Shown piece by piece: positions 8,086 to 33,660 of a stretch of DNA of 64,000 bases (positions are counted from its first letter, which is position 1; the number at the start of each line of letters is the position of its first letter). The notes beneath the pieces are model-generated. The model worked only from the letters and a program-made list of their open reading frames with translations. It was not told the DNA's origin and ran no database searches. Source of the DNA: Pseudosphingobacterium sp. Its GTDB lineage: Bacteria; Bacteroidota; Bacteroidia; Sphingobacteriales; Sphingobacteriaceae. The DNA is taken from assembly GCA_035565175.1 (NCBI GenBank), contig DATMSZ010000085.1, positions 2,325-66,324 of the forward strand, in the 5' to 3' direction. A program made the translations under genes and the position numbers.

Positions 8086-11000
8086 ATGTACAAAAAATAT
8101 ACTGCTAAGAAAGGTGGTACGGGTTTCCCTTGCCTTTTAAAACCTATACGGGTTATGAAATATGCTGTTTTCCTTACAATAATCTTTTACTTTCAAGCGG
8201 AGGCGGCTGTTCGCGCACAAAATGCTAGTTTGTCGGTAGAAAACCTCTCCTTGAAAAGTGTCTTTAGAATGCTGAAAAAGCAAACAGGCTATGATTTTCT
8301 GTATGCAACAGACGATCTATTAGACGCCCGACCAGTAACTATCCATGTGCACAATCAACCTTTAAAACAAATACTAGACAAATGTTTGGAGGGGCAACCA
8401 CTGATGTATAGAATCGATAAGGCCACCGTTCTTGTTGAAAGAAAAAAAATAACCCTGCAGCAGGACAGAGAGGTGCAGGACATAACTGTTAGGGGTAACG
8501 TGATCGATAAAAATGGTGAAGCGGTGCCGGGAGCATCTGTTTACGTGAAAGACCAGCAGACCAGCGGCACGAAGACGAACGCCGCAGGAGATTTCTCTTT
8601 ACGGGTTACTAAAAATGCAGTTTTAGTGATCAGCTCGATTGGCTTTATCAAAAAGGAAATCGTGGTAGGTGGTATAGATAATCAAAAGAAAATGACCATT
8701 CAGCTGGTGGATGAAGAGGCCTTGCTGGATGAAGTGGTGGTGGTGGGATATGGCACTGTAGCAAAAAAGGATTTGACAGGTGCAGTCTCTACTGTGCAGG
8801 GCGATTTAATCACTGCCCGCAAAACAACGCAAATATCACAGGCATTGCAAGGAGCAGTACCTGGTTTGATGGTGACGCGCAATAATAATGCGCCAGGCTC
8901 ATCGGCTACCATACGAGTACGTGGTATTACGACGATTACAGATGGAGGGTTGAATCCGCTGTATATTTTAGATGGCGTACCTATTGATGATATTAATACC
9001 GTAAATCCAAATGATATCGAGAACATTTCGGTGCTGAAAGATGCCGCCTCTGCCTCTATATACGGGTCTCGCGCAGCCTCCGGAGTTATTGTAATCACAA
9101 CGAAAAGGGCTAAAGAAGGACAGATTGGCCTCGACTATTCGGTAGAATATGGTTGGGAAAAAGCTACACAATATCCGGAGTATGTGGATGCCGTTCGCTA
9201 TATGCAACTAACAAATGAGTTGCGGTGGAATGATAACAGTAATAACGATAATGAATACCCCATTTATACCAAAGATTTGGTCGACAACTACCTTCAGTTA
9301 CATCAGGAAAATGCGGATGCGTACCCCATTACCGATTGGCGTGGGTTGATGTTACACGATTATGCACCGAGACAAAGCCATGTGATCGGTATTTATGGCG
9401 CTAATAAATTTGTGAAGACGCGTGCATCCATTGTATATGATAAGAATAACGCGTTTTATGATGAAAGAAGCTACGATCGGATTACTTCGCGAATAAATAA
9501 TGATTTCACAATTGGAAAATACTTAAACGCGAGCGTTGATCTGAGTTACAGACGTACGATTACCAAGAATGCAGTTTTTGATGGTGGCCCGATAACCGAG
9601 AACAACCGCGCAACTACGCCCATGTACAAAATGGGCATTATGCCACCTATTTACGCAGCGTTATGGTCTGACGGCCGGATAGGGGCTGGAAAGGATGGGG
9701 CCAATATTTATGCCTTGATGAAAGAAGGGGGCTTTGAACATTATTGGTATAATCAAGTGGGTGGGAAAGTCAGTTTAGACTTTACACCGCTCGAAGGCTT
9801 GAAGTTATCTGGCGTGTTTTCTCCTTTCCTGAATTTCGACAAGGGAAAAGTATTTAACCGAAAAGTCCCTTATACCACGTTTAATGAGCCCGAATCTATT
9901 GCGGGCTATATTGAACAGGCTACAGAAACCAAACTGCAAGAGAGTAGAAATGATAATCATCGCTATACCGTGCAGTTTTTAGCCAACTATAATAAACAGT
10001 TTGGCGATCATAGCCTGAATGTACTTGCCGGCTATGAGTATTTTTACGCCTTTAATGAGGGATTGGGAGCGTCGAGAGGGCAGTATCTGTTAACAAATTA
10101 TCCTTATCTGGATATTGGCCCGCTGGATTATCGTAATAACAGCGGTGACGCTTATGAGAATGCCTACCGTTCGTGGTTTGGCCGCATTATGTATAATTAC
10201 CAGGATAAATACCTCTTGCAAGCAAATATCCGTTATGATGGTTCTTCCCGTTTTGCTCCTGCGCATCGCTGGGGAGCTTTTCCTTCCGTGTCGGCAGGAT
10301 GGGTATTGTCTAACGAAGGTTTTTTAAAGGATCAATGGGAGCCGCTATCCTTTCTGAAGTTAAGAGCGTCTTACGGTACGTTGGGTAATGAACGTATCGG
10401 AAACTATCCTTATCAAGCGATTCTGTCTTTTGAGAATAAGTCGCTTTTTTACCAGGGTAACACCATTGTCGCTGGTCAGTCGGCCGCGCAATGGCAGTAT
10501 GCCATTCGGGATATTTCTTGGGAAACAACTTCTTCTTTCGATATAGGGCTCGACGTCAATTTCTTTGATAATCGGTTGACTTTTGTGGGCGACTACTACA
10601 AGAAAACTACCAAGGATATGTTGCTTAAGCTGGAAATTCCAGACTATGTAGGGTTCGATAATCCTGATCAGAATACGGGAAAGATGTTCACCAAAGGTTG
10701 GGAAGCACAGATAGGTTGGAGCGATCGTATAGGGGAAGTTCGTTACGGTGCTTCTTTTAATGTTTCCGATTTTATCTCCAGAATGGGCGATCTGGGTGGA
10801 ACGGAGTTCATAGAAGATCAGATAAAAATAGAAGGGAGTGAATTTAATGAGTGGTATGGCTACCTGTCGGACGGACTGTACCAAACGCAAGCGGAGGTGG
10901 ACAATTCGGCGAAGCTGAATGTGAATGTTCGCCCGGGCGATGTTCGCTACAAAGATATCAGTGGGCCGGATGGTGTTCCCGATGGTAAGATTTCACAGGA

Positions 11001-11517
11001 ATACGACCGGGTTTTATTAGGCGGCTCGTTGCCTCGTTACATCTTCGGTGGTAATTTTAATGTAGGTTATAAAAGTTGGGATTTGTCGTTCGTCATTCAA
11101 GGTGTGGGAAAGCAGAATAGTCGATTGAGTGAGGATATTGTACGACCACTACGCGAGAATTATGGGAACTTCCCTGCCATTCTGGATGGGAATACCTGGA
11201 GCAACTACCAAAGCCCGGAGCAGAATTTGAATGCCAAATATCCTCGTTATTCTAATACCTCTGCTGTTAACAACTATGCACTGTCTGATTATTGGTTGAT
11301 TAACGGCGGATACTTTCGTTTAAAAAATGTAACAGTTGGTTATTCTTTTCCTCAGCGTTGGATGGATAAAGTGCATTTAAAAGGACTTCGCCTCTATGGT
11401 ACGGTGAACGACTTATTCTCAATCCATAACTTCCCCAAAGGGTGGGACCCTGAAATGAATACTTTGGGCTATCCCATTACCAAAACTTTTTTAATCGGTG
11501 CTTCAGTGAAATTTTAA
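8086..11517 (+). CDS. SusC/RagA-type TonB-dependent outer-membrane transporter with an N-terminal STN signalling domain (PUL-A)
   Basis: STN-like segment (LKSVFRMLKKQTGYDFLY...). Carboxypeptidase-regulatory-like domain (VRGNVIDKNGEAVPGASVYV). Plug signature (EVVVVGYGTVAKKDLTGAV). Terminal F. The true start could be the ATG at 8155 (MKYAVFL...). Confidence 0.9.
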   Translation: MYKKYTAKKGGTGFPCLLKPIRVMKYAVFLTIIFYFQAEAAVRAQNASLSVENLSLKSVFRMLKKQTGYDFLYATDDLLDARPVTIHVHNQPLKQILDKCLEGQPLMYRIDKATVLVERKKITLQQDREVQDITVRGNVIDKNGEAVPGASVYVKDQQTSGTKTNAAGDFSLRVTKNAVLVISSIGFIKKEIVVGGIDNQKKMTIQLVDEEALLDEVVVVGYGTVAKKDLTGAVSTVQGDLITARKTTQISQALQGAVPGLMVTRNNNAPGSSATIRVRGITTITDGGLNPLYILDGVPIDDINTVNPNDIENISVLKDAASASIYGSRAASGVIVITTKRAKEGQIGLDYSVEYGWEKATQYPEYVDAVRYMQLTNELRWNDNSNNDNEYPIYTKDLVDNYLQLHQENADAYPITDWRGLMLHDYAPRQSHVIGIYGANKFVKTRASIVYDKNNAFYDERSYDRITSRINNDFTIGKYLNASVDLSYRRTITKNAVFDGGPITENNRATTPMYKMGIMPPIYAALWSDGRIGAGKDGANIYALMKEGGFEHYWYNQVGGKVSLDFTPLEGLKLSGVFSPFLNFDKGKVFNRKVPYTTFNEPESIAGYIEQATETKLQESRNDNHRYTVQFLANYNKQFGDHSLNVLAGYEYFYAFNEGLGASRGQYLLTNYPYLDIGPLDYRNNSGDAYENAYRSWFGRIMYNYQDKYLLQANIRYDGSSRFAPAHRWGAFPSVSAGWVLSNEGFLKDQWEPLSFLKLRASYGTLGNERIGNYPYQAILSFENKSLFYQGNTIVAGQSAAQWQYAIRDISWETTSSFDIGLDVNFFDNRLTFVGDYYKKTTKDMLLKLEIPDYVGFDNPDQNTGKMFTKGWEAQIGWSDRIGEVRYGASFNVSDFISRMGDLGGTEFIEDQIKIEGSEFNEWYGYLSDGLYQTQAEVDNSAKLNVNVRPGDVRYKDISGPDGVPDGKISQEYDRVLLGGSLPRYIFGGNFNVGYKSWDLSFVIQGVGKQNSRLSEDIVRPLRENYGNFPAILDGNTWSNYQSPEQNLNAKYPRYSNTSAVNNYALSDYWLINGGYFRLKNVTVGYSFPQRWMDKVHLKGLRLYGTVNDLFSIHNFPKGWDPEMNTLGYPITKTFLIGASVKF

Positions 11518-11527
11518 TAAAACGGAT

Positions 11528-13225
11528 ATGAAATTTTCAGTAAAAATATACATAAGTGTTGGAATAGCTCTTCTCTTCATGGGCTCCTGCGGAAAGCTTG
11601 ATTTAAATCCTTTATCACAGGGATCAAGCGAAACTTGGAATTCCACGCCGGAAGAAATAGAGATGTCTTTAAATGGCTTGTACAAAGTCGACTTTTGGAT
11701 GACGGATCAGGATGATTGGACCGATGATTGGATTTACCGGGATGTGCTATCGGAAGTGGCCAATGCAACCCTCAATGGACAAACCAAAGTAGTAGGTGAT
11801 TGGTGGAAGAATACTTATAAATGTATTGCGCGAGCCAACAGTGTTATAGCGAGCGTAGATCGTGCGGCAAATTTATTATCGCAGGAACAGCGCGATCGGT
11901 ATGTTGCTGAAGCACGTTTTGTGCGTGCGTCCCAGTATGCGCGTCTTCTCTCGCATTATCGCAACATTGTATATACCGAAACCATGTTGGATATTGAGGA
12001 AGCTTTAGCCGCCGACCAAGCGGATCCAGCAATGGTGCTGCAGAAGATCTATGAAGATTATGACTTCGCAGCGAATAACTTGAAGATTAGTTATAGCACT
12101 TCAGAAGTTAAACGGGCCACGGCTGGTGCCGCTTTAGCAATGAAAGCGCGTATTGCACTCCATATGGGGGATTGGGAAACGGCCAAGAATGCAGCAAAGG
12201 CGTGCATGGACTTGGATGTTTATCAATTACATGCAGATTTTGGTAGTCTTTTCTTGTCAAAAACCAAGAACTCCACCGAAATGGTATTCGGATTTCCGCG
12301 TTCCATTGCGCTCAATATTGCGAAGGGCGATTGCCAGAATTACGTGCCTAGGAATGCAGGTGGCTGGGGTGCAAAAGCGCCGTCATGGGATCTTTTTTGT
12401 GCTTTTTTATGCACAGATGGTTTACCGATCGACGAATCGCCCTTGTTTAACCCGCAGGTACCATTCGTAAATCGTGATCCACGTTGTGCTAAAACCATCG
12501 TTGAGTTTCAAACACCGCACTTAGGATACATCTATCAACCACATCCTGATTCTTTAAAGGTGAAGAGTTTAGCAAGCAATGCGCTGGTTGAAAACAGGGA
12601 TACACGCGCGGTAGCACAATATGCATCCTTTAATGGGTTGCTTTGGAAAAAGGGAATTGACGAAGATTGGTTGAAAAATTCCTGGCAAGTGGAACCTGAT
12701 CAAATCATCATTCGGTACGCCGATGTATTGCTCATGTATGCGGAGGCGAAAATTGAATTGGGTGAGTTGGATGAATCGGTAGCGGAGGCAATCAATCAAG
12801 TGCGGGCAAGGGCTTACGGAGTGGAAGCGGGAAACACGCAAGCCTATCCAGCGGTGCGGTTGGAAACACAAGAAGCGATGCGAAAATTAGTACGTACTGA
12901 GCGTAGAATGGAGTTTGCGTTGGAAGGTATTCGCTATATGGATATTATCCGTTGGAAATTAGCAGAAAAGGTACTGAATAAGGTGAATTATGGCATGTTG
13001 GATGTGGATGATCTACGAGCAAAAGTAGTGAAACCGGGATTATGGTTTTTCCCTCAGGTTCCTGTTATTGATGAAGATGGGGCGGCCGATTTTTCTGCGA
13101 TGTATAACGCCGGCCTAGTCAAACAAATTGCCGTTCGTAAATTCGATCCATCAAGGCAATATCTGTGGCCCATACCTACCAATGAAGTATTAACCAGTGG
13201 TTTGAAACAAAACCCCAATTATTAA
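11528..13225 (+). CDS. SusD/RagB-family glycan-binding lipoprotein (PUL-A)
   Basis: Lipobox (LLFMGSC). It lies 10 bp after susC. C-terminal RagB/SusD motifs are present (ERRMEFALEGIRYMDIIRW, QYLWPIP). Confidence 0.9.
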   Translation: MKFSVKIYISVGIALLFMGSCGKLDLNPLSQGSSETWNSTPEEIEMSLNGLYKVDFWMTDQDDWTDDWIYRDVLSEVANATLNGQTKVVGDWWKNTYKCIARANSVIASVDRAANLLSQEQRDRYVAEARFVRASQYARLLSHYRNIVYTETMLDIEEALAADQADPAMVLQKIYEDYDFAANNLKISYSTSEVKRATAGAALAMKARIALHMGDWETAKNAAKACMDLDVYQLHADFGSLFLSKTKNSTEMVFGFPRSIALNIAKGDCQNYVPRNAGGWGAKAPSWDLFCAFLCTDGLPIDESPLFNPQVPFVNRDPRCAKTIVEFQTPHLGYIYQPHPDSLKVKSLASNALVENRDTRAVAQYASFNGLLWKKGIDEDWLKNSWQVEPDQIIIRYADVLLMYAEAKIELGELDESVAEAINQVRARAYGVEAGNTQAYPAVRLETQEAMRKLVRTERRMEFALEGIRYMDIIRWKLAEKVLNKVNYGMLDVDDLRAKVVKPGLWFFPQVPVIDEDGAADFSAMYNAGLVKQIAVRKFDPSRQYLWPIPTNEVLTSGLKQNPNY

Positions 13226-13240
13226 TCGATATTCTTAATT

Positions 13241-15712
13241 ATGGACATGCTACGAAAGAAAAAAATAGGATGGTTGTTTCTTTATTCCCTAATAAGTGCT
13301 TGCGCAGTACAGGAGCAGAAAGAACCGATACAAATGAGTGGTGTTTATCCTCATCTGGCCATGTACAATGAGGAGGGGGAATGTGGCACAGGAGCCGTAG
13401 TGCCTTGGCAAGACCGATTATGGGTAATAACCTATGGACCGCACTTACCCTTTGGTTCCTCTGATAAGTTATACCAAATTAATGATGGGTTGGAAAGAAC
13501 GATTCATCCCGAAAGCATTGGTGGAACACCTGCCAATCGATTGATTCACAGGGAGAGTCAACAGTTGTTTGTTGGGCCTTATGCCATTGATTCAATGCGT
13601 CATGTTCGGGTGATACCTTATCAAAATATGCCGGGACGCTTAACAGGCAATGCACGGCATCTGACCGATCCTGCCCATAAGATATACTACGGGACAATGG
13701 AGGAAGGTTTCTATGAAGTGGATGTAAAAACGCTAAAGCCATACTGGCTCTTTGCTGACGAAAACCTTAAATCTGCACAGCGAAATAAGGTGCCTACGGC
13801 TAATTTAATTGGTTGGCATGGCAAAGGCCTTTATTCCGGTCAGGGGGTATTGGTATACAGTAATAATGGTGAAAGAGGTGACAGTGCTTTGCATCATTTC
13901 GATGCGCCCTCAGGTGGTCTACACGAATGGGATGGTAAACATTGGAAGATGATCCGTAGAAATCAATTTACGGAAATAACCGGTCCGGGCGGGATTTATG
14001 GGAATTCACATCCGGAGACAGATGCGATTTGGACCATTGGCTGGGATCATAAATCCGTGTTGCTAGGTGTTCGCGGCGAAGGGAAATGGGCTTTTTACCG
14101 TTTGCCAAAGGCTAGCCACAGCTATGATGGTGCACATGGGTGGAATACCGAATGGCCGAGAATTCGAGATATCGGAACTGAGGGGAAACCAGATTACCTG
14201 ATGACGATGCATGGACTGTTTTGGCGTTTTCCGGGCGATTTAACACGTACTCATGCCCTTGGAATTCGTCCGCGATCAGCATATCTCAAGGTGATTGGTG
14301 ATTTCGCACGGTGGCACAATCGGCTTGTTTTTGGCTGTGACGATTCGGCCGAACGCGAATTTCTGAATAAGCGAAAAGCAAAGGGCAACATTGAGGGGCC
14401 GGGACAATCAAATTCCAATTTATGGTTTACTTCTTTGGAGCAGCCGGATGAGCTAGGGCCCGCAACGGCCGATGGTGCAGTTTGGCAAGAGGAAAAAATA
14501 GCGGCCGGACAGCTTTCTGACCCCTTTTTATTTGCGGGTTGGCCTATTCGTTCTTGCTGGTTATCAAATGAAGGAACGACCAGTACTACCTTTGTGCTTG
14601 AAGTAGATCTATCGGGAGATGGGCAATGGAAAAACCTCAAAGAGATAAAGGTATTACCTGGAGAAGCTATAAACTTGTCATTGAAAAGGGAAGAGAAAGG
14701 GGAATGGATTCGCGTTAGAACAGTTGAAGCAACAACCGCCAGTGTTCATTTTACCTATGCCCAAGAAGAGAAACGGGGCGGTAATGCGGATAATATCTTT
14801 CGGGGCCTGGCCGAAGCATCAACTTTCGAAGGTGGCCTGCTTTATGGCTTGGGAGACAATAGGAAAGCGTTGGGTTTAGTGGCGCGACGTTATGATGAAG
14901 GTGTTCTCAAAACAACACCAGGCTATTATGAGTTGAATGAGAAAATGGAGCTGTTGCCTAAAAGTGGAGATACCACGGCCCAATTTATGGAGAAGCGTTT
15001 CGCTATTCCAAAAGACGTGGTGAGCTTGGAAGCTTCCTCCGTATTGGTGATAGATGATAAGGGGCGTAGATGGCGGCTTCCTCTAGGGGATAGTGCGTTT
15101 ACCGAACTAACAAATAAATCGGCATTGCGCATCTGTCGGGAAGTGGCTACAGAACGTGATCTATTGAATTGCCATGGTACTTTTTACGAATTGCCTGCAG
15201 AAAATGCAGATGGCTTTGCTAAAATGAGACCTATTGCGTCGCACCCTTTTAAGATTAACGATTATGCATCCTATCGCGGTATGTTGATCATGACGGGCAT
15301 TGATCCAGCGAAATTGAAAACGAATCAAAATGAACATATTATTGTTTCGGAAGACAGAAAAGCCGCTGTTTGGGCGGGCGTTATTGATGATTTGTGGAAA
15401 CTGGGCAGGCCGAGAGGAGAGGGCGGGCCCTGGAAGGGCAGTCAGGTAAGTAAAGGCATTGCTTCGGATCCTTACCTGATAGGTTTCTATGATAAAAGGA
15501 CATTGAAGTTATCGCATCAAGCCGAGGGTGAGGTAACCTTTACGATTGAGGTTGATCCGGGTGGCGATGGAAATTGGATGACTTATAAATCGGTTAAGGT
15601 TCGAAAGGAAGAAATCTTTAAATTTGAATTCCCATCGGCTTTTCAAGCACGGTGGATCCGTTTTAAAACAGATACCGATTGTGAAGCTACTGCTTGGTTA
15701 TCGTATACCTAA
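13241..15712 (+). CDS. Large lipoprotein of unknown family with two repeated C-terminal beta-sandwich-like modules
   Basis: Lipobox (LISAC). The ORF is 823 aa, lies 15 bp after susD, and contains no motif I can assign. An internal repeat links aa ~410-506 and ~727-823. Confidence 0.8.
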   Translation: MDMLRKKKIGWLFLYSLISACAVQEQKEPIQMSGVYPHLAMYNEEGECGTGAVVPWQDRLWVITYGPHLPFGSSDKLYQINDGLERTIHPESIGGTPANRLIHRESQQLFVGPYAIDSMRHVRVIPYQNMPGRLTGNARHLTDPAHKIYYGTMEEGFYEVDVKTLKPYWLFADENLKSAQRNKVPTANLIGWHGKGLYSGQGVLVYSNNGERGDSALHHFDAPSGGLHEWDGKHWKMIRRNQFTEITGPGGIYGNSHPETDAIWTIGWDHKSVLLGVRGEGKWAFYRLPKASHSYDGAHGWNTEWPRIRDIGTEGKPDYLMTMHGLFWRFPGDLTRTHALGIRPRSAYLKVIGDFARWHNRLVFGCDDSAEREFLNKRKAKGNIEGPGQSNSNLWFTSLEQPDELGPATADGAVWQEEKIAAGQLSDPFLFAGWPIRSCWLSNEGTTSTTFVLEVDLSGDGQWKNLKEIKVLPGEAINLSLKREEKGEWIRVRTVEATTASVHFTYAQEEKRGGNADNIFRGLAEASTFEGGLLYGLGDNRKALGLVARRYDEGVLKTTPGYYELNEKMELLPKSGDTTAQFMEKRFAIPKDVVSLEASSVLVIDDKGRRWRLPLGDSAFTELTNKSALRICREVATERDLLNCHGTFYELPAENADGFAKMRPIASHPFKINDYASYRGMLIMTGIDPAKLKTNQNEHIIVSEDRKAAVWAGVIDDLWKLGRPRGEGGPWKGSQVSKGIASDPYLIGFYDKRTLKLSHQAEGEVTFTIEVDPGGDGNWMTYKSVKVRKEEIFKFEFPSAFQARWIRFKTDTDCEATAWLSYT

Positions 15713-15744
15713 TTTATGTATGAAAAGTACTTGATCCAGATTTT

Positions 15745-16836
15745 ATGAAGAAGAAGTTCCGTCAGGTTGCCAGCTTATTTATAGCCTGTTTTTGGCTTGC
15801 TTCTGTGGCAGCACAGGGGAAAGGGGAGACGTATACGGTATCAGAGAGTGGGGAAGCCTATGAACTGGTGCTGGCATATGATCGGCAGCAAGAGCCAGCT
15901 TATTTTGTTCGGAATATTTTTACACCGGTTTGCCTAGACAGTGTCTGCAAACCGGTACGTATCAAATTGTTCTGGGATTTATTGGGAAATTACCTGAAAT
16001 ATGAAGTGCCAGCGGACGAGCCGCTAACCAAATTGGACCATAAGGAGTTTACACCTGAAGATCATGCAAAGCTCCAAGGGATCCTTTCCAATGAAAATTC
16101 CTTATTAAAGGATTTCAGATTGGAAGACCTGGTCGATTCCACCAGCCAGCACTTATCGGACTCGGTGGATGCCGTTACCGGAGCAACAAAGAATACGATT
16201 AAAAATGAGGTGATTGAAGGGGCTTTATATACCTGTTATACCTTATGGCATCTGGCGCATGGGCCAGTGGTAAATGAAATACAAGAAATCTTTAAGACCA
16301 AGTTGGATACCCACATGCTTCATCGCTTTTTGCGGAGTATGAACTTCCACTATGTCTATTTTGCATTAGAGGAAGTCATGAATGCGGAAGGGGTAATCCA
16401 AGATGGCTTTCTACCTGACGTACTAGCTGTTTTGGCAAGTGATAATGTGTTTGCAGCTCGTCATGTTTGGCAACGGATCAATTTACAATATTTTGCGAAG
16501 CGCGAAGAGCAGGAAACCCTTTGGCGTATTTTTGTGCATTCACCCTATACGCTGCAAGTTGCCTTTTTAAAACGAATGAAACAGTTGGATTTGGATCCCG
16601 GGCTCGTTCCACGCATAACAGATTATCTGCCAAAACTAAACAACGCATTATTCAAGCAAACACTAGGTGTACTGGCGACGCAAGACGTGCTTCCTCGGAC
16701 CTCGCAGGAAAAGTTGCTTGCTTACCTGACTTCAGCAGATAAGGAAAAGTCCGAGGCAGTATATGACGCGATGAAAGGACACTCCAAATTAAGTGAAGCT
16801 TTTCATAAACAGTTAAGAATTTATAGTAAACCTTAA
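15745..16836 (+). CDS. Secreted protein with an FMN_bind-like segment (DAVTGAT flavinylation-type motif) and a helical-repeat C-terminus
   Basis: Sec signal peptide (…LASVAAQG). The motif D142-A-V-T-G-A-T148 is encoded at nt 16168-16188. An HKEFTPED stretch upstream resembles the ETPG region of FMN_bind domains. The C-terminal ~190 aa look alpha-helical and HEAT-like. Confidence 0.5.
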   Translation: MKKKFRQVASLFIACFWLASVAAQGKGETYTVSESGEAYELVLAYDRQQEPAYFVRNIFTPVCLDSVCKPVRIKLFWDLLGNYLKYEVPADEPLTKLDHKEFTPEDHAKLQGILSNENSLLKDFRLEDLVDSTSQHLSDSVDAVTGATKNTIKNEVIEGALYTCYTLWHLAHGPVVNEIQEIFKTKLDTHMLHRFLRSMNFHYVYFALEEVMNAEGVIQDGFLPDVLAVLASDNVFAARHVWQRINLQYFAKREEQETLWRIFVHSPYTLQVAFLKRMKQLDLDPGLVPRITDYLPKLNNALFKQTLGVLATQDVLPRTSQEKLLAYLTSADKEKSEAVYDAMKGHSKLSEAFHKQLRIYSKP

Positions 16837-16844: not shown

Positions 16845-18641
16845 ATGATGAACCCTATTTTTAAAACCTACCTACTAATCCTGATCTTTTTTTTCTGTTT
16901 ATTGCGAGTGGCCGCGCAAGAACAGGTTTTGGTGGAGGCCGAGTCTTTTCGTCAAAAGGGGGGATGGGTGGTTGATCAACAGTCCTTTCCGGTATTACAT
17001 TCTTCCTATTTAATGGCACATGGCATGGGACGACCCGTAGCGGATGCCAAAACCCAGGTGAAATTTTCAAAGAAAGGGAGCTACAAGGTTTGGCTTAGAA
17101 CAAAAGATTGGGCACCTTACCCGGTAGGACCCGGTAAGTTTAAGCTGCATGTGGATGGCCAAGCCTTAGCGCCCACTTTTGGAGAAAGCGGCGATGGAGC
17201 CTGGAAGTGGTACAATGGCGGGGAGATAAGAGTCGAAAAGGATTCGGTTGAGCTGGTGCTGCAAGACTTAACAGGCTTTAATGGCCGCATAGATGCTATC
17301 TTGTTCAGCCGTGGAAGCAATACCGAACCTCCAAATGAGCTAGCGGCTTTGGATGGTCTACGTAATAAACTATTGGGCCTACGTGCAGGGTTAAAAGAAA
17401 TGGGCGATTTCGACCTTGTGGTGGTGGGTGGTGGTGTAGCGGGAACGTGTGCGGCGATATCTGCTGCCCGTTTGGGCTTGAAAGTGGCACTCATTCAGGA
17501 TAGGCCATTGCTTGGCGGGAACAATAGCTCGGAAGTACGTGTGCATCTGATGGGCGATCTGGATAAGAGTTACTACCCAAAGTTGGGACGGATTGTTCGC
17601 GAATTGGATAATGGTGACCCAGGTAATGGTAATCCGAATGCTAAAGAATATGGCGATGCGCGTAAGTTTGCCATTGTAAAGGCGGAAAAGAATCTTTCGC
17701 TGTTTGTTAATACCCATGTGTACCAAGCGGAGACAGCGAATAACACCATTAAGGCGGTTATTGGCCGAGATATTGAGACAAATCAGGAAAGAAGATTCAC
17801 AGCTAAATATTTCGCGGATTGCACAGGGGATGGTACCCTCGGTTTTTTGGCTGGTGCAGATTTTCGTATGGGACGGGAAAGTAAACAGGAAACAGGCGAG
17901 TCCCTCGCCGCCGATAAAGCAGACGATTTTACCTTGGGCACCTCCAATTTATGGGCATCTTTACCTGTTGATAGTGTAACGACATTTCCCGAAACACCTT
18001 GGGCACTCACTTTTTCGGAGGAGTACCATATTGATGAAGAACAGTCAGATTGGCAATGGGAAACAGGTTTCGGCAATTTTAATACAATTACCGAAGCCGA
18101 GCAGATAAGAGACCATAATCTTCGGGCGGTATATGGCAACTGGTCATATCTAAAAAATAATAAACCCGAAAAATATGGTAAAAGGGCGTTGGCATGGGTC
18201 GCTTATATTGGTGGAAAACGGGAGTCGAGGCGCTTATTGGGTGATCATATCCTGACCCAGATGGATGTGCAGGAAGGTAAAGTTTATCCGGATGCAACTG
18301 TGACGGCTACATGGACCATCGATCTTCATTTCCCAGACAAGAAAAATAGTCTCTATTTTCCTGACGAAGAATTTTTTGCTGGCACCAAACATATTCGCGT
18401 AGCACCATATACCATCCCTTATAGATGCTTATATTCACGAAACGTGAGTAACCTGTTTATGGCAGGTAGAGATATCAGTACCACGCATGTAGCCTTTGGA
18501 AGTACACGTGTGATGCGTACCTGCGGGATGATGGGCGAGGTGGTGGGGATGGCCGCTTTTGTGGCGAAGCAGCATCAAACTACACCCCGTGGTGTGTATG
18601 AAAAACATTTGCCGGAATTTATGGGCATGATTAAGGATTAA
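16845..18641 (+). CDS. Exported FAD-dependent oxidoreductase (FAD_oxidored/PF12831-like) with an N-terminal beta-sandwich (CBM-like) domain
   Basis: Sec signal peptide (…LLRVAAQE). Dinucleotide-binding motif DLVVVGGGVAGTCAAISAARLGLKVALIQD (nt ~17412-17501). The N-terminal ~130 aa (EAESFRQKGGW...RIDAILFS) precede the Rossmann fold. Confidence 0.7.
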   Translation: MMNPIFKTYLLILIFFFCLLRVAAQEQVLVEAESFRQKGGWVVDQQSFPVLHSSYLMAHGMGRPVADAKTQVKFSKKGSYKVWLRTKDWAPYPVGPGKFKLHVDGQALAPTFGESGDGAWKWYNGGEIRVEKDSVELVLQDLTGFNGRIDAILFSRGSNTEPPNELAALDGLRNKLLGLRAGLKEMGDFDLVVVGGGVAGTCAAISAARLGLKVALIQDRPLLGGNNSSEVRVHLMGDLDKSYYPKLGRIVRELDNGDPGNGNPNAKEYGDARKFAIVKAEKNLSLFVNTHVYQAETANNTIKAVIGRDIETNQERRFTAKYFADCTGDGTLGFLAGADFRMGRESKQETGESLAADKADDFTLGTSNLWASLPVDSVTTFPETPWALTFSEEYHIDEEQSDWQWETGFGNFNTITEAEQIRDHNLRAVYGNWSYLKNNKPEKYGKRALAWVAYIGGKRESRRLLGDHILTQMDVQEGKVYPDATVTATWTIDLHFPDKKNSLYFPDEEFFAGTKHIRVAPYTIPYRCLYSRNVSNLFMAGRDISTTHVAFGSTRVMRTCGMMGEVVGMAAFVAKQHQTTPRGVYEKHLPEFMGMIKD

Positions 18642-18660
18642 AATATTCCTTAATCATGCC
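18624..18660. terminator. Perfect 14-bp inverted repeat spanning two convergent stop codons (bidirectional terminator)
   Basis: GGCATGATTAAGGA (18624-18637) pairs with TCCTTAATCATGCC (18647-18660), with a 9-nt loop. It covers the stop at 18639-18641 (+) and the stop at 18650-18652 (-). Confidence 0.7.
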
Positions 18661-21600
18661 TTTCACCATCAGCCATTTGTGCTATTTCAGCTGAAGATAG
18701 GCTTTCGGCAAAGACCATTACTTTCTTTGCTAATCCCTGGTAGATCCGCTCGCCAGGGAATTCTTCGTTTTGTCCTAACTGCCATCTATTGTTATTGGCT
18801 AGGCTTACATCGGGTGCTACCGCTAAGCGCTCTTTTAATACCCCATCTATGTACAGGTATAGATTTTTGCCATCGCACACACCTGCCACATGGTGCCACT
18901 TACCATACCAATCAGCAGGGAGCTCGGTTGTACATTCTCCTCTTCCCCAGCCGCCTGCAAAAAAGTTCAGCTTCTTGCCATCAACTAGTTGTAACACATG
19001 CTGGTCGCCTTTTGAAAAGATATCTACCAATCCGGCTGCTGGTGCTTGGGCTTTTATCCATAATGTGATGGTCATGCGGGTATCAATAGCGTCTACAATG
19101 CGGTTTTCTTTCCAACTAACATAACGCTGACTATCTAATGTGAATAGCTGGTCTTTAGGTGAAAAGGCTAAACCTTTTACACTTGCTTCGTTAGCAAAGG
19201 GTGTTTTGTCTATTAATAAGCCATTCGACCCTACCTCCAAATTCGGCCCTCCAAACAGCAATGCTTCTAGCGCTTGGTCATAAACCAGGTATTTGCCCTG
19301 CTGATCTGCTATCGTAATTGTTTTTTGTCCTTTTTCATCTGTCTGAAATACCCATACCCGTTGTTGTTCTTCACCGGGTTGAAGGGTTAAGGTATCTATT
19401 CCGATCTCTTGACCACTTAACTGAATCGGTAATTGTATCTTCTTTGGAGCACCATCTAAATTTTTCACTTTGTAGTGTAATCGTTGATCAGCGCCGAGCC
19501 TTACCAAAGGTGCATAGCTTAGCTGACTAACTTCAAGGCGTGTTGCCCGCTGGTGAACAGATGGGGTAACGTGTATCATTAAATGATGATCGTCTAACGT
19601 TAGTTGATGCTCGCCAAAAGGGTATACACGAACAAACAGGGTATCTTGGCGTGTTTCGCCTTCTTCGAGCAGCACATTTTCATAAATAAAGGGTTCACCA
19701 TCTAGCTTGACTTCCAGTTGTTTTGTGCTTCTGGCTCCTTTATTATGCAGTTGCACCATAACGGGGATAGGTTCGTCTGGGTTTACTTTGTTCTTTAAAA
19801 CTTCCACTTTATTTAGGCGCACGGAAGGCTTTCCCGCATCGGCAGTTATTACATCGGCGAGCTGATTCCAGGTGCTATTTGCCTTTTCACCCAGTATGAA
19901 TTTTAACAGCGCTCCACTTATCAATGTTTGGTGGTCTACCTCAAATTTAGAATAAGGTTTTCCATTTAGCTGCACTGCCTGCAGGTAATAACCAGACTCT
20001 TTGATTGCGTCTTTCTGTATGGATATGATCTTTTTGTTGGGCAAATGAATGGTTACCTCGTCAAACAAAGGGGTGCCAAGCGTATAGATCGGTTTGCCGG
20101 GAGCTATTGGATAAAAGCCTAGTGCATTGAATATATACCAGCTAGATAGGGAGCCAAGGTCATCATTTCCCGGTAATCCACCCGGAGTGTCTGAAAAGCG
20201 GTCGGTTAGAATGCGATGCACCCAGTATTGGGTAAGATCGGGCCGCCGGGCATAAAGGAATAAGTAGGGCACATGAAAAGCAGGTTCATTATCGAATACC
20301 AGTTGTTGCCCGGACAAAAAATGGTTTAAGCGACTGGAAAATAGCGAATCGTCGCCCATTAGGTTGATAAGATCTCGAGGGTATTGGGGAACAAAATAAC
20401 TATAGATGTAAGTGTCTCCTTCTTTATAACCAAAAGTACCGGGTTGATTTTTCCATCCCGCCTCATCTTTTGGTATAAAGAAGAGTTCGTCTTGTTTGAA
20501 CAACTGGCGATAAGCTCTACTGTATCTTTTCGTGATAGTTGCCACAGCAGTGTCCTGCATCACTTTTTCTGCAAAGTTGGCAAGGGCCCAGTCATCGTAA
20601 GCATATTCCATTGTTCGGGTCACCGATTCGCCCATGGTTGCGGGTATGAAACCTTTTTCGTGATACACGGCAAGATCCGGTTGCTTAAAGGGCGCTTGGT
20701 AGATACTTCCTTTTAACGCTTCATAGATTTCTTTTGCATTTGCTATCATCGGATTTTTTAGATAGGAATCTACCAAGATGGGCACGGCATGGTTTCCTGT
20801 CATCGACTCGGTGGGAAGAAAACCACTTTGTTTATATACATCTAACATAGAGCCAACCATTTCTGCCTGTCTTTGCGGCCAAAGCAATTGGATTAAAGGG
20901 TGTAAGGTTCGAAAAGTATCCCAAGGAGAAAAGCTACCGTATTGATTGTTCCTATTTGTTTGATGTGTTAACCCGTCTGCACCCTTATAGAAGCCGTCGA
21001 CATCCGAGATCACCCATGGCAATAAACAGGCGTGATACAAGGCTGTATAAAAACTACGTTTGTGATGTACGTTCGCATCGGTTATGGAGATGGTTTGCAT
21101 AAGTGCCGACCATTCCTTGTGGGTCTGCTGGAACACATAAGAAAAAGGAACTTCTTTTGCTTTTCTCGTTTCCTGTAGCAATGCCATGATATTTTTCAAA
21201 GCTGCAGCATAGCCTAGAGGGGAGGCACTTACTAAAACAGTTAAAACAGTCGGAGAAGTCCGGTTTCCGTTGAAATGGAGTGTATTGTTGCCATCTGTTG
21301 GTTCTTGCTTGGTAACAGCCAAACTAAATTGAAAAGCACTGCCATGTTGTGTGCCGTAAGCAGTATTGCCCGATTTAAATTGGAGTGCACCTACATCTGC
21401 TATCCATAGCCTGGGCGCAACGCCGGCAGGAAAGGTAATCTTTATGATGCCTACACGAGCGGTGGCAGTACATTCTACCAAGGTCTTATCATCTTGGAAA
21501 GTTATACGGTAATAGCCTGGCTTGGCTTGTTCGTCGGAATGCCGAAAGGAGCGAAGCCTATTACCCCCTTTACTAATGGGCATCAGTTGTATATTACCTT

Positions 21601-21904
21601 TTGACCCCTCTGGAAAGCCGCTTTTATGCCCTATACACGAAAAATATTGGATGGAGCTGTCTGCATAATGGTATCCTGATTGGCCACCACCTGTTTCGGG
21701 ACTTATTTGTATATAACCCCAGGGCGCCGTGGCGCCCGGGTAGGTGCCTCCTTCCTTACCCCATTTTGTATATGCCTTCGCATCGTCTGTACCAATAAAC
21801 GGATCGACATAGTTGATTTCTTCCTGATCCGGTAAGATAGAAGCAAATGCGGTATATCGATAGCCAATTATTAAAAGTAGTAGAAAGAGTGATTTTTTGT
21901 ACAT
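18650..21904 (-). CDS. GH92 alpha-mannosidase with a C-terminal extension (two Ig/CARDB-like modules plus a LamG/concanavalin-like domain)
   Basis: GH92 N-terminal signature (VDPFIGTDD...GGTYPGATAPWGYIQISPET) and the EYAYDDWALANFA motif. The C-terminal segment KWHHVAGVCDGKNLYLYIDGVLK is typical of LamG. Confidence 0.85.
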   Translation of the reverse strand: MYKKSLFLLLLIIGYRYTAFASILPDQEEINYVDPFIGTDDAKAYTKWGKEGGTYPGATAPWGYIQISPETGGGQSGYHYADSSIQYFSCIGHKSGFPEGSKGNIQLMPISKGGNRLRSFRHSDEQAKPGYYRITFQDDKTLVECTATARVGIIKITFPAGVAPRLWIADVGALQFKSGNTAYGTQHGSAFQFSLAVTKQEPTDGNNTLHFNGNRTSPTVLTVLVSASPLGYAAALKNIMALLQETRKAKEVPFSYVFQQTHKEWSALMQTISITDANVHHKRSFYTALYHACLLPWVISDVDGFYKGADGLTHQTNRNNQYGSFSPWDTFRTLHPLIQLLWPQRQAEMVGSMLDVYKQSGFLPTESMTGNHAVPILVDSYLKNPMIANAKEIYEALKGSIYQAPFKQPDLAVYHEKGFIPATMGESVTRTMEYAYDDWALANFAEKVMQDTAVATITKRYSRAYRQLFKQDELFFIPKDEAGWKNQPGTFGYKEGDTYIYSYFVPQYPRDLINLMGDDSLFSSRLNHFLSGQQLVFDNEPAFHVPYLFLYARRPDLTQYWVHRILTDRFSDTPGGLPGNDDLGSLSSWYIFNALGFYPIAPGKPIYTLGTPLFDEVTIHLPNKKIISIQKDAIKESGYYLQAVQLNGKPYSKFEVDHQTLISGALLKFILGEKANSTWNQLADVITADAGKPSVRLNKVEVLKNKVNPDEPIPVMVQLHNKGARSTKQLEVKLDGEPFIYENVLLEEGETRQDTLFVRVYPFGEHQLTLDDHHLMIHVTPSVHQRATRLEVSQLSYAPLVRLGADQRLHYKVKNLDGAPKKIQLPIQLSGQEIGIDTLTLQPGEEQQRVWVFQTDEKGQKTITIADQQGKYLVYDQALEALLFGGPNLEVGSNGLLIDKTPFANEASVKGLAFSPKDQLFTLDSQRYVSWKENRIVDAIDTRMTITLWIKAQAPAAGLVDIFSKGDQHVLQLVDGKKLNFFAGGWGRGECTTELPADWYGKWHHVAGVCDGKNLYLYIDGVLKERLAVAPDVSLANNNRWQLGQNEEFPGERIYQGLAKKVMVFAESLSSAEIAQMADGERHD

Positions 21905-22683: not shown

Positions 22684-23736
22684 ATGGTAGATAAAGACGA
22701 AATTATTAGGTTAATGGCGAAAAGGCTGGGGAAAACTGCTACACCGGATGAAAATTTACGGTTGGATGAGTACTTGCAGGATTACCCGGAAGAAAAGACA
22801 TGGTGCGAACTAGCATCTGCCATTCGATTGAAAACAGCTGACCAACCCGACAATTTTACTCCTGAAGAGCTGAAGGAAAAAAACACACAGCTTTGGGAAA
22901 ACATTCATCGCACAGGTGCGCTGGATGAAACGCTTGATGGTACACGAAATAGCGGCCGTATGGGCCGTTTTAGGAAAATTTACTGGGCAGCAGCCTGTAT
23001 CTGTTTTTTATTGGTAGGCATAGTCACCTTTTATATTTTTCAGCAACCTAAAGACCAATTGATTGCCCAAACAGCCTTCGGTGATACCCAAAGTGTTGAA
23101 TTGCCTGATGGTACGAAGGTAAAACTGAATGCTGGAAGTAGGTTATATATTGACCATCAATTTAATACCGATGCAAGAAAAGTGATACTGATAGGAGAGG
23201 CTTATTTTGAGGTTGTTAGCCGGCCTAATGTTCCGTTTCTAGTAGAAGCGGGCGATATTAACATAGAAGTGTTGGGTACTGCGTTTAATGTGAAGGCCTA
23301 CCCCCATGAGAACATCGAAACAACGCTTATTCAAGGTAAAGTTGCCGTAAACGTTAAAAAAGGAGACCGTATTCTCTTAAAACCTGCCGAAAAACTGACG
23401 GTAGAAACCGGCAATTCATCGGGCGCAGATGCGCAAAGTAAAAAGATAAAAGTGAGCAAGGTTACTTCTGACGGATCGGATGATCGAACGCAAATTGCGT
23501 GGCTTTCAAATCGATTTGTTTTTTCAGACGACCGCTTTGGAACTGTTGCAAATCAATTAGAACGAAAATATAATGTTCATTTTAAGTTTCAGGACAGTAC
23601 GTTACAAAATGAAAAGATTAATGGCGTACTGGAGCATGAAGATTTAATACAATCATTAAGGCTGTTGAAACGAATAGTAGCTTTTGATTTTGAACAAAAA
23701 CGAGATACAATAATCATCCATAACTCAAAAAACTAG
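22684..23736 (+). CDS. FecR-family anti-sigma factor (PUL-B)
   Basis: Single transmembrane helix (IYWAAACICFLLVGIVTFYIF). FecR motifs are present (LPDGTKVKLNAGSRLY, GEAYFEV, VLGTAFNVKAY). Confidence 0.85.
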   Translation: MVDKDEIIRLMAKRLGKTATPDENLRLDEYLQDYPEEKTWCELASAIRLKTADQPDNFTPEELKEKNTQLWENIHRTGALDETLDGTRNSGRMGRFRKIYWAAACICFLLVGIVTFYIFQQPKDQLIAQTAFGDTQSVELPDGTKVKLNAGSRLYIDHQFNTDARKVILIGEAYFEVVSRPNVPFLVEAGDINIEVLGTAFNVKAYPHENIETTLIQGKVAVNVKKGDRILLKPAEKLTVETGNSSGADAQSKKIKVSKVTSDGSDDRTQIAWLSNRFVFSDDRFGTVANQLERKYNVHFKFQDSTLQNEKINGVLEHEDLIQSLRLLKRIVAFDFEQKRDTIIIHNSKN

Positions 23737-23778
23737 CTGTAAATTATGAAAAAATGAAGACAGGACCAGAAAAATAAA

Positions 23779-23829
23779 TTAAGGGCGAGCGGCAACTCAC
23801 CCTTAAAGCGATAAGGAGCTAAGCTCCTT
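23779..23829 (+). terminator. Two tandem hairpins downstream of the anti-sigma gene
   Basis: TTAAGGGCGAG (23779-23789) pairs with CTCACCCTTAA (23796-23806) with one mismatch. AAGGAGC (23813-23819) pairs with GCTCCTT (23823-23829), followed by TCTTC. Confidence 0.5.
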
Positions 23830-23924
23830 TCTTCTAGTAATTATTAACCACACAAAGATAAAAAACCTTTTGATGTATTTCACCTTAAGGAGTAAGCTGT
23901 TCTTTGTGAAATCGACTTAAATGA

Positions 23925-27287: not shown

Positions 27288-27293
27288 TTTATT

Positions 27294-28814: not shown

Positions 28815-28840
28815 TGTTGGTAGGCAATGATTAACATATT

Positions 28841-28897
28841 GCGAACAGACGCGAAGAAGAGATGTACGTAAAGGCGTGAAGCAACGCGTCCGTTCGC
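28841..28897 (+). terminator. Possible long-loop hairpin after susD
   Basis: GCGAACAGACGCG (28841-28853) pairs with CGCGTCCGTTCGC (28885-28897) with one mismatch. The loop is 31 nt and there is no U-tract. Confidence 0.25.
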
Positions 28898-29228
28898 AAA
28901 ATGAAAGACCTTATCTGAGACAATCGATTAAAAAATCGCTTTGCGGTTCACGATGTCTTCAAAAAGAAAATGAACGAGCTAATTACATATCGATGAAACC
29001 TTACGAACACAATGTCTTTCAATTTCTGCAGGGAAAACTATGGCTGTATAATTTCAACCAAAAGTCATCTAAAGTCTTTTGCTATTACTTATCTGTACGC
29101 AAGAGCAAAACAGACTGGAAGGCTTAAGGTCTGCAAATAAATTGGCCGTAATAGTTGCGTATCGGCCGAATTAAACATTTTTACCCTAAGTTTAGACAAA
29201 TACAGCAGCCCGCTTGTGTTTGCTTGGC

Positions 29229-33650: not shown

Positions 33651-33660
33651 ATACAAAAAG

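Follow-up and report, generated by a model that had tools for sequence, protein, structure and literature searches.

ApbE-dependent flavinylation is the main known bacterial route to flavin redox centers outside the cytoplasm, and the accepted classes of ApbE substrates are few: FMN_bind, NqrB/RnfD, DUF2271, DUF3570, Flavodoxin_4, and FMN reductase. FMN_bind substrates (PF04205) include NqrC, RnfG/RsxG, NosR, PplA, and the single-domain proteins of PDB entries 3O6U and 8P2B; they are extracytosolic, and they carry D-x-x-[S/T]-G-A-T on a loop that leads into a helix, and FMN is attached to the terminal Thr of this motif. In urocanate reductase (UrdA), Listeria FrdA, and Klebsiella fumarate reductase, all of which are extracytosolic, an FMN_bind domain is fused to FAD_binding_2, and the ApbE-attached FMN relays electrons to or from the non-covalent FAD of a Rossmann-type extracytoplasmic flavoenzyme. 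Periplasmic FAD sugar dehydrogenases such as glucoside 3-dehydrogenase and gluconate 2-dehydrogenase (cytochrome c and small subunits) work with a separate electron-transfer subunit. The ApbE motif has been defined as D-x-x-[S/T]-G-A-[S/T], some substitutions within it permit roughly 50% or near-normal flavinylation, and the Klebsiella fumarate reductase depends on ApbE (PMC12052999). The DUF2271 and DUF3570 substrates were found by guilt-by-association and then confirmed experimentally, and the authors of that work state that more ApbE substrates are still unidentified (PMC8238504).

Here we compare these systems with a locus from Pseudosphingobacterium sp. The DNA that we analyzed, referred to as the window, is a stretch of 64,000 nucleotides, and the gene of interest, referred to as the target, encodes an exported protein of a family without annotation. 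Judging from sequence, we consider it probable (roughly 65%) that the target is the subunit that carries FMN in a periplasmic flavoprotein module of two genes, the other of which encodes an FAD enzyme. The features of the window on which this reading draws are as follows.

6083-6673, plus strand: ECF sigma factor (Pfam), a likely regulator of the locus
6817-7974, plus strand: FecR-type anti-sigma factor (Pfam), a likely regulator of the locus
8086-11517, plus strand: SusC-like TonB-dependent transporter with an STN domain (Pfam)
11528-13225, plus strand: SusD-like protein (Pfam)
13241-15712, plus strand: predicted lipoprotein of 823 aa with a lipobox-like LISAC, from a family without a name, between SusD and the target
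15745-16836, plus strand: target gene, encoding a predicted covalent-FMN carrier, exported, of a family without annotation
15745-15813, plus strand: predicted Sec (type I) signal peptide of the target, residues 1-23, by inspection, with cleavage between VAA and Q
15814-16275, plus strand: N-terminal domain, residues 24-177 (AlphaFold2 models)
15931-15948, plus strand: invariant Cys pair C63 and C68 (PVCxxxxC), beside a beta-hairpin turn
16168-16188, plus strand: ApbE-type motif D142-A-V-T-G-A-T148, with the codon of T148, the predicted FMN-phosphoester attachment residue, at 16186-16188
16276-16833, plus strand: C-terminal armadillo/HEAT-like helical-repeat domain, residues 178-363 (AlphaFold2 and Foldseek)
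16845-18641, plus strand: exported FAD-dependent oxidoreductase of 598 aa (PF12831; Pfam FAD_oxidored, E 4.5e-76, residues 190-587)

The target lies in a Bacteroidota polysaccharide utilization locus (PUL), co-oriented with the SusC and SusD genes. A preliminary description of this DNA had proposed such a setting, and the ECF sigma factor, FecR, SusC, and SusD genes are indeed found upstream on the same strand. The gaps between genes from SusC through the FAD enzyme measure 8-32 nt. SusC and SusD genes are present in 78 of 80 related species loci, and the families conserved among these 80 loci are LacI, SusC, SusD, a GH88/127-like protein, an SSF symporter, GH2, the unnamed lipoprotein, and sigma/FecR. 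Clustering of all open reading frames in the same 80 loci revealed no conserved membrane electron-transfer gene, and we count this against reading the target as a flavin carrier. The 823-aa lipoprotein has no match in Pfam, NCBIfam, or the PDB, and because its ortholog occurs in just 26 of the 80 species loci, we place it outside the core pair formed by the target and the FAD enzyme.

The open reading frame at 15745-16836 begins with ATG and encodes 363 amino acids. Its translation opens with MKKKFRQ, a hydrophobic stretch of 15 residues, and VAA followed by Q, which by inspection looks like a type-I Sec signal, with basic residues (K2, K3, K4, and R6) in the n-region, a hydrophobic core spanning residues 8-22, and small side chains at positions -3 and -1. 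With n-, h-, and c-regions all present by eye, the protein is predicted to be extracytosolic, in keeping with the export that had been proposed for it. The sequence VAAQ also closes the signal peptide of the adjoining FAD enzyme.

The AlphaFold2 model of the full-length target has a mean pLDDT of 90.4 and contains 14 helices between residues 161 and 361, and the helices of the C-terminal domain have pLDDT values above 95. Using Foldseek, the best PDB matches of the C-terminal half are designed armadillo-repeat proteins (E 2e-3, probability 1.0), and armadillo-repeat proteins fill at least the top 30 matches of the full-length model. The family profile also matches a PDB "HEAT repeat domain-containing protein" weakly (E 0.14). 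The confident, all-helical model and these armadillo-repeat matches agree with the earlier impression that the C-terminal region is helical. No HEAT or Arm repeat is matched by Pfam in the target, and the repeat assignment is a structural one. This domain presumably serves for docking.

Since the full-length matches were swamped by the repeat domain, the N-terminal domain was modeled separately, which gave a pLDDT of 82.5. The order of its elements is a five-strand beta-meander, helices, the motif loop, and a helix. Its invariant residues are V62, C63, C68, W77, G81, L94, T95, K96, H99, F102, L129, T148, A160, T166, L167, and W168. The two Cys residues sit on a hairpin formed by strands 51-64 and 67-77 of the model, and they are unchanged in homolog alignments of 39 and of 86 sequences.

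The target is a perfect match to the ApbE motif. Residue counting places D142 to T148 at nucleotides 16168-16188, where the preliminary description had put them, and the residues right after DAVTGAT are KNTIKNEVIEGAL, again as described; HKEFTPED, which had been placed immediately before the motif, is actually found at residues 99-106, about 36 residues upstream. DAVTGAT is no chance feature of the target, because the pattern D..[ST]GA[ST] occurs once, in the target, among the 21,356 residues of the long stop-free segments of the window, and because all 86 homologs keep the final Thr. Among these homologs the other defining positions are nearly as constant (A in 85, G in 84, and D in 78, the other eight having N), and in 147 divergent representatives, all 24 variant motifs likewise end in Thr. 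The family variants G to A, A to V, and D to N include substitutions reported as tolerated in flavinylation. The commonest variant, DAKAGAT, is found in 31 of the 80 species loci and has Ala rather than Ser or Thr at position 4, and a few distant members have a Pro or a charged residue within the motif (e.g., DAVTRPT and DAVTKPT). We count the Ala at position 4 and the Pro and charged variants against the flavin-carrier reading, together with one distant member flanked by TerC and HAD genes instead of an FAD enzyme gene; the contigs of two distant representatives were too short to inform on context.

A relaxed form of the motif is found in 79 of the 80 target proteins of the species loci, in none of 93 FAD enzyme sequences, and in at most two members of any one other conserved family, which makes the target the only candidate ApbE substrate in these loci. 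In the AlphaFold2 model, the motif lies in a low-confidence loop (residues 131-150, pLDDT about 55), which is compatible with access by ApbE. As in FMN_bind substrates, this loop is followed by a helix in a protein that is predicted to be extracytosolic, and the terminal Thr is the predicted FMN residue.

To which family does the N-terminal domain belong? Its profile matches 833 representatives at 50% identity, and every one of 102 homolog clusters is named either "hypothetical" or "HEAT repeat." A scan of the target against Pfam and NCBIfam returned no family match; hits to RPAP3_C (E 0.046) and to an RNA-polymerase subunit F model (E 0.093) were treated as noise. The preliminary description had assigned an FMN_bind domain, and this assignment did not hold: PF04205 (gathering score 22 bits) is absent from the target at E values up to 1, matches in homologs are sub-threshold, and the N-terminal domain model has no PDB match at an E value of 0.001 or better using Foldseek. 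The lack of a recognized flavin-binding fold in this domain is counted against the flavin-carrier reading. The same description had named a missing FMN_bind match combined with a variable motif as an outcome that would refute its proposal; the match is missing, but the motif is conserved.

The N-terminal domain could instead be a very divergent FMN_bind domain of the NqrC/RnfG type that the profile fails to detect, which we consider unlikely. This possibility bears on classification and does not conflict with the functional model. Among the weak Pfam matches of family members, FMN_bind comes second in frequency, with sub-threshold hits in 5 of the 86 homologs (best E 0.034), and the top PDB match of the family profile is the FMN_bind domain 8p2b_A (E 0.11, 43 residues). 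Using Foldseek, NqrC (4xhf) ranks second and fourth for the N-terminal domain (TM 0.33-0.41), and hhalign pairs T148 with the Thr of GAT in E. coli RsxG. The order of sheet, helix, motif loop, and helix also resembles that of FMN_bind. However, none of these weak, local similarities is significant. In the two homologs that were checked, the Pfam match scores 13-15 bits and covers profile positions 46-65 of 77, which amounts to about 20 residues of the motif. The NqrC matches have E values of 0.3-0.45, probabilities of 0.21-0.33, and an rmsd of 9.6-12 Å. The hhalign comparison, which used a single E. coli RsxG sequence because the RsxG homologs listed were enterobacterial, with 82% identity or more, and thus too narrow for an FMN_bind profile, aligned 24 columns with a probability of 0.4%. 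In addition, the family has invariants of its own, including the Cys and His residues of PVCxxxxC, LTKxDH, and CYTLWH, which are not known as features of FMN_bind. The target family also departs from FMN_bind substrates in its fusion to an armadillo/HEAT-like domain and in its genomic setting, which is that of SusC/SusD loci and not of NQR, RNF, or Nos genes.

Other families fared no better. DUF2271 (PF10029) and DUF3570 (PF12094) have no Pfam match in the target and are missing from the top 25, by frequency, among the 70 families weakly matched by the 86 homologs. DUF5662, matched below threshold in 7 of the 86 homologs (best E 1.8e-4) within the helical region, was judged spurious.

The FAD enzyme is encoded by a separate open reading frame that starts 8 nt downstream of that of the target. 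By inspection it has a Sec-type signal peptide, and its catalogued domain is preceded by an N-terminal extension of some 165 unannotated residues. A PF00890 (FAD_binding_2) match in Pfam is limited to the first 36 residues of that domain (190-225), and PDB sequence matches span only the dinucleotide-binding motif. The FAD enzyme was rejected as an ApbE target, the motif being present in none of its 93 sequences. No characterization of PF12831 was found in the searched literature or the PDB, and searches on PF12831, on ApbE together with PULs, and on flavinylated FAD oxidoreductases in Bacteroidetes returned nothing relevant.

A PF12831 gene adjoins the target homolog, in the same orientation, in 77 of 77 species loci and in 75 of 80 metagenome loci, the other five genes lying at or near a contig end; both gene orders are represented. 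The pairing is, in these genomes, an obligate one, and the partnership with the adjacent FAD enzyme that had been suggested from the single window appears sound. The arrangement proposed here resembles UrdA and FrdA in that an ApbE-attached FMN would exchange electrons with a non-covalent FAD in an extracytoplasmic flavoenzyme. It differs from them in that the two putative flavin sites lie on two polypeptides, the products of neighboring genes, the FAD enzyme belongs to PF12831, the carrier domain falls outside FMN_bind, a helical-repeat domain presumably takes the place of the covalent tether, and the setting is glycan utilization rather than anaerobic respiration.

So strict a one-to-one adjacency would also suit a dedicated chaperone. 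Instead of carrying electrons, the target could help the Sec-exported FAD enzyme to mature or act as its scaffold, with the repeat domain holding the unfolded or apo enzyme in the periplasm and the motif loop, flavinylated or not, helping to deliver or retain flavin; we regard this as quite improbable. The FAD enzymes mostly lack a twin-arginine signal (a crude N-terminal pattern check found no RR pattern in 62 of 64 scorable metagenome copies, and the copy in the window is of the Sec type), so FAD would be acquired after export, and the loci encode no terminal redox partner. Nevertheless, one FAD enzyme paralog that bears a twin-arginine signal (RRDFIRS), and would be exported folded with its cofactor, still keeps a motif-bearing partner. 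An invariant Thr and a dedicated apbE exceed the needs of a chaperone, and all characterized ApbE substrates known to us use the attached FMN as a redox center (PMC8238504, PMC11334425).

We return to the target as a flavin carrier and to the genomic association with apbE. An apbE gene, identified by Pfam with an E value of 3.4e-78, directly follows the pair in 53 of the 74 species loci that have room for one at that position. These loci span Chitinophaga, Dyadobacter, Spirosoma, Runella, Arsenicibacter, and Rudanella, and in Dyadobacter bucti a single apbE lies between two target/FAD enzyme pairs. In 12 metagenome loci, a match to the ApbE model comes immediately after the pair or overlaps with its end. 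The trio of target, FAD enzyme, and apbE moves between differing PUL backgrounds: in Chitinophaga it is accompanied by an ECF sigma factor and the unnamed lipoprotein, and in the Cytophagales by LacI, a GH88/127-like protein, an SSF symporter, and GH2. Together with the conservation of the motif and its restriction to the target, this association favors T148 as the putative flavinylation residue, as had been proposed. No apbE is adjacent in the remaining 21 of the 74 loci or in any locus in which the FAD enzyme gene precedes the target, none was found across the 64-kb window by tblastn and HMM searches, and the four other Olivibacter genomes also lack one at this locus. Members of this clade would therefore need an ApbE from elsewhere in the genome. 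We count the 21 loci and the window without apbE against the flavin-carrier reading.

The lack of a local apbE in the window and its clade would also fit a reading in which the motif is a conserved structural or ligand-binding loop with no relation to flavin and the target a non-redox PUL accessory, such as a glycan-binding protein or an adaptor, with apbE serving another target or role. Pfam, NCBIfam, and Foldseek detect no flavin-binding domain, helical-repeat domains are generic interaction modules, and position 4 of the motif is often Ala. We consider this explanation very improbable, since apbE not only adjoins the pair in most loci but travels with it across PUL backgrounds, no other protein in those loci bears a motif, and the conserved G, A, and terminal T are the residues that count for ApbE.

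In the mechanism that we favor, Sec would export the target, and cleavage of the signal peptide would leave Q24 as the N-terminus. A periplasmic ApbE, encoded outside the window in the host genome, would then take FAD and attach FMN to T148 through a phosphoester bond in the exposed, flexible loop. The C-terminal repeat domain would dock the carrier onto the exported PF12831 enzyme, so that the covalent FMN and the enzyme's FAD could form a short electron relay. This relay would join a reaction on a glycan-derived substrate, imported by SusC/SusD, to a general periplasmic or membrane redox carrier. The conserved motif, the obligate FAD enzyme neighbor, the frequent apbE neighbor, and the domain anatomy are observed, whereas flavin attachment, docking, and the relay are inferred, as are its substrate, its terminal partner, and the direction in which electrons would flow. 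For that direction, we lean toward sugar oxidation feeding the respiratory chain, given that the host genera are presumably aerobes.

Sugar oxidation by the PF12831 enzyme is a hypothesis for which periplasmic sugar dehydrogenases offer a precedent. Candidate substrates include alpha-mannans, in view of a GH92 gene next to the locus, and glycans containing uronate, in view of the GH88/127-like proteins encoded nearby in relatives. In both cases, an exported FAD enzyme acting on sugars would be encoded alongside a dedicated electron-transfer protein. The known dehydrogenase complexes, however, are of the GMC family and pass electrons to heme c, whereas here the enzyme is of PF12831 and its partner would carry a covalent FMN.

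Our best reading of the family is that it represents a new putative class of ApbE substrate, in which a covalent-FMN carrier is joined to an armadillo/HEAT-like domain, in SusC/SusD loci of the Bacteroidota. More tentatively, and at somewhat less than even odds, the N-terminal domain may be an unrecognized ApbE-substrate fold and the carrier and PF12831 enzyme a widespread flavin relay for glycans in PULs that is wired to electron transport. Like DUF2271 and DUF3570, the target family has no assigned function, has a conserved [S/T]GA[S/T], and is recognized through clustering with apbE (PMC8238504). It has no sequence relationship to either of them, differs in taxa and context, and is partnered with a PF12831 enzyme rather than with PepSY-like and DsbD systems; and whereas flavinylation of DUF2271 and DUF3570 is experimentally confirmed, that of the target family is predicted.

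If this reading is correct, it would add to the ApbE substrates a class with a new architecture, a carrier domain combined with an armadillo/HEAT docking domain, and would extend flavinylation to a new setting, the SusC/SusD glycan-utilization loci of soil and marine Bacteroidota. Redox chemistry would then sit inside a sugar-harvesting gene cluster, a new link between flavinylation and polysaccharide utilization. It would also provide the first functional handle on the PF12831 "FAD-dependent oxidoreductases," implying that they are genuine redox enzymes that require a dedicated electron partner.

Polysaccharide utilisation loci (PULs) are densely packed along the window, and one of them encodes both the protein carrying the motif DAVTGAT (the target) and, directly downstream, a PF12831 oxidoreductase (the FAD enzyme).

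Features of the window (strand where assigned)
6083-6673, ECF sigma factor
6817-7974, FecR anti-sigma factor
8086-11517, SusC with STN domain
11528-13225, SusD
13241-15712, plus strand, predicted lipoprotein of no assigned family, 823 aa, lipobox-like LISAC
15745-16836, plus strand, target gene (ORF and translation, 363 residues)
16845-18641, FAD enzyme (PF12831)
18650-21904, minus strand, GH92 alpha-mannosidase-family protein, 1084 aa, C-terminal Laminin_G_3 (concanavalin-like) domain
22684-35232, plus strand, FecR-controlled locus with SusC/SusD (23925-28814), GH115 and two GH43
49917-62343, plus strand, FecR-controlled locus with SusC/SusD (51209-56043), GH38-like protein, GDSL esterase and GH92 (60001-62343)

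The target reading frame is real, and by residue count D142-A-V-T-G-A-T148 falls at nt 16168-16188, exactly where the preliminary description had put it. The motif is directly followed by KNTIKNEVIEGAL; HKEFTPED, described as preceding it, occupies residues 99-106 and so ends some 36 residues before the motif. Judged by eye, the N-terminus is shaped like a type-I Sec signal, in which a basic n-region is followed by a hydrophobic core of 15 residues and a VAA/Q junction. Signal cleavage before Gln is common among Bacteroidota, and on inspection VAAQ also closes the signal of the neighbouring FAD enzyme. Within the 21,356 residues of the window's long stop-free segments, the target site is the single match to the strict pattern D..[ST]GA[ST].

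The target matches no Pfam or NCBIfam family. Its homologues, grouped at 90% identity, form 102 clusters, all named "hypothetical" or "HEAT repeat"; their sources include Olivibacter, Chitinophaga, Spirosoma, Larkinella, Cyclobacterium and Flexithrix. The motif is conserved in the family: in an 86-sequence alignment the terminal Thr is T in 86/86, the Ala is A in 85/86, the Gly is G in 84/86, position 4 is T in 75, A in 7 and S in 4, and the Asp is D in 78 and N in 8. A profile of the N-terminal domain retrieves 833 representatives (50% identity) at E <=0.001 and 443 at E <=1e-30, mostly of 320-400 residues with the domain N-terminal. Among the best 150 matches listed, 147 are new representatives, and 123 of these keep [DNES]xx[STA]GA[TS]; in the other 24 the Gly or Ala position varies and the terminal Thr is always kept. 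The ApbE motif is D-x-x-[S/T]-G-A-[S/T], and seven residues suffice for flavinylation; modification is lost upon Thr-to-Ala substitution, Asp-to-Ala effects are minor, and Gly-to-Ala or Ala-to-Val changes retain about 50% (PMC12052999). Given these tolerances, most variants in the target family fall within tolerated limits.

The AlphaFold2 model of the target is confident (39 sequences; mean pLDDT 90.4, pTM 0.81) and contains a five-stranded beta-meander at residues 27-87, then helices, and a helical solenoid reaching residue 361. The motif of this exported protein lies on an exposed loop of low confidence (residues 131-150, pLDDT ~55), after which comes a helix at 161-172. A Foldseek search with the whole model returned armadillo-repeat proteins (best E 2e-3, probability 1.0), so that the C-terminal domain earlier called HEAT-like is confirmed as a helical-repeat domain at the structural level.

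The FMN_bind domain that had been assigned to the N-terminal part did not emerge from the tests run, a Pfam scan of the target giving no FMN_bind match at E up to 1. Scanned singly, 5 of 86 homologues gave sub-threshold FMN_bind matches (best E 0.034); in two members checked, these scored 13-15 bits against a 22-bit cut-off and were confined to profile positions 46-65 of 77, the stretch that corresponds to the motif. The best PDB sequence match of the family profile is an FMN_bind domain, 8p2b_A, with E 0.11 and 43 residues aligned about the motif, and hhalign aligned 24 columns of the family with E. coli RsxG, whose homologue set was poorly diverse. Modelled alone (pLDDT 82.5), the N-terminal domain had no Foldseek match in the PDB at E <=0.001, with NqrC (4xhf) at ranks 2 and 4 (E 0.3-0.45, TM 0.33-0.41). 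Three weak pointers toward FMN_bind proteins thus allow very distant homology, and the domain may be a very divergent FMN_bind, a question of classification that is compatible with the functional model below.

The decisive evidence is genomic context. We examined 80 species-representative loci, of 235 species matched. Counts over these loci are phylogenetically non-independent, even though two orders and two PUL backgrounds share the module. In 77/77 loci with room, the next gene downstream of the target, in the same orientation, is a PF12831 gene, and apbE directly follows that gene in 53 of the 74 with room. The identity of ApbE is confirmed by Pfam (E 3.4e-78; precomputed annotation PF02424). 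In Chitinophaga, genes for an ECF sigma factor, FecR, SusC, SusD and an 820-aa lipoprotein of no named family precede the trio of target, FAD enzyme and apbE; in Cytophagales (Dyadobacter, Spirosoma, Runella and relatives) the order is LacI, SusC, SusD, trio, GH88/127-like, SSF symporter and GH2. Since it occurs in two different PUL backgrounds, the trio acts like a mobile module. When all ORFs of the 80 species loci are considered, 79/80 target proteins contain the relaxed motif [DN]xx[STA]GA[ST], compared with 0/93 FAD enzymes and at most two members of any other conserved family, which leaves the target as the sole candidate substrate of ApbE there.

Among 80 metagenome loci that include far more distant members (34-60% identity in the N-terminal domain), 75 have an FAD enzyme gene next to the target in the same orientation, downstream of it in 34 and upstream in 41, and the motif is kept in both orders; the remaining five genes lie at or near contig ends. 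Twelve of the 80 have an ApbE-model match, all with the target first. Gene pairing of the target with an exported PF12831 flavoenzyme is obligate, and linkage of apbE to the target is frequent and independent of context. A motif unrelated to flavin is strongly argued against by this linkage and by the conservation pattern.

In Dyadobacter bucti a single apbE lies between two pairs (9866-16753 of that locus), in the order carrier 1, FAD enzyme 1, apbE, carrier 2, FAD enzyme 2. FAD enzyme 1 has a Sec signal and an N-terminal extension, carrier 2 has the motif DAVSGAT, and FAD enzyme 2 has a twin-arginine (Tat) signal, RRDFIRS, and a C-terminal DUF7402 domain. A second pair of this kind is also present in two other loci, L075 and L078. 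A distant member on a metagenome contig (SRR8382459_4120, 799-1938; 28% identity, motif DAVSSAT) lies between genes for a TerC membrane protein and a HAD hydrolase, with no FAD oxidoreductase alongside, so partners of another kind may exist in the wider family.

No apbE was found in the 64-kb window by tblastn or an unfiltered family HMM, and a local apbE is also missing at the four other Olivibacter loci, so this clade would need ApbE encoded elsewhere in the genome. Bacteroidota usually carry an apbE for NQR. Searches of Pfam, NCBIfam and PDB sequences with the 823-aa predicted lipoprotein gave nothing beyond a weak C-terminal F5/8 type C match. Olivibacter, Chitinophaga and Cyclobacterium loci have orthologues (59-78% identity) in the corresponding place, yet just 26 of 80 related loci contain one; the protein may be a glycan-binding protein or a glycoside hydrolase of an unclassified kind. 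In the FAD enzyme, a Sec-type signal and an extension of ~165 aa come ahead of the FAD-binding GxGxxG (16845-17400, residues 1-185). No Pfam family covers this N-terminal extension, the only match being Big_15 at E 0.094; its sequence suggests a possible carbohydrate-binding beta-sandwich. The GH92 gene, convergent with that of the FAD enzyme (stop codons 8 nt apart) and not found in related loci, hints at a mannose-containing substrate.

We propose that ApbE would attach FMN to T148, that the repeat domain may dock this carrier onto the FAD enzyme, and that carrier FMN and enzyme FAD would form an electron relay. An analogous relay exists in FMN_bind plus FAD_binding_2 reductases of the UrdA/FrdA type, whereas here it would be split over two genes. 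A rival reading would make the carrier a maturation factor for FAD enzymes: by a crude N-terminal check, most of these carry no twin-arginine signal, which means that they must take up FAD once exported. Outside the motif, C63 and C68 (PVCxxxxC), W77, G81, L94-T95-K96, H99, F102 and T166-L167-W168 are also invariant, and C164 and H169 nearly so. The flavinylation model does not account for C63, C68, H99 and C164-Y-T-L-W-H169 (15931-15948 and 16234-16251, plus strand), which could serve in a disulfide, in tuning the flavin environment or in metal binding.

The classes of ApbE substrate already recognised comprise FMN_bind types 1 and 2, NqrB/RnfD, DUF2271, DUF3570, Flavodoxin_4 and FMN reductase (PMC8238504, PMC11334425). 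Neither paper mentions PF12831, SusD, polysaccharides or Bacteroidota/Bacteroidetes, and the former states that less prevalent substrates remain unidentified (PMC8238504). Our literature search found nothing on the target family or on ApbE in PULs. Thus, the flavinylation chemistry and relay logic are already known, and we judge the predicted carrier family, the split architecture with its putative docking domain and the PUL setting to be new. The genes conserved in the 80 species loci include no cytochrome, PepSY-like, NapH-like or DsbD-type gene. Because the host genera are aerobic soil bacteria, we lean toward oxidation, and conjecture that the FAD enzyme oxidises a glycan-derived substrate and passes the electrons to the respiratory chain.
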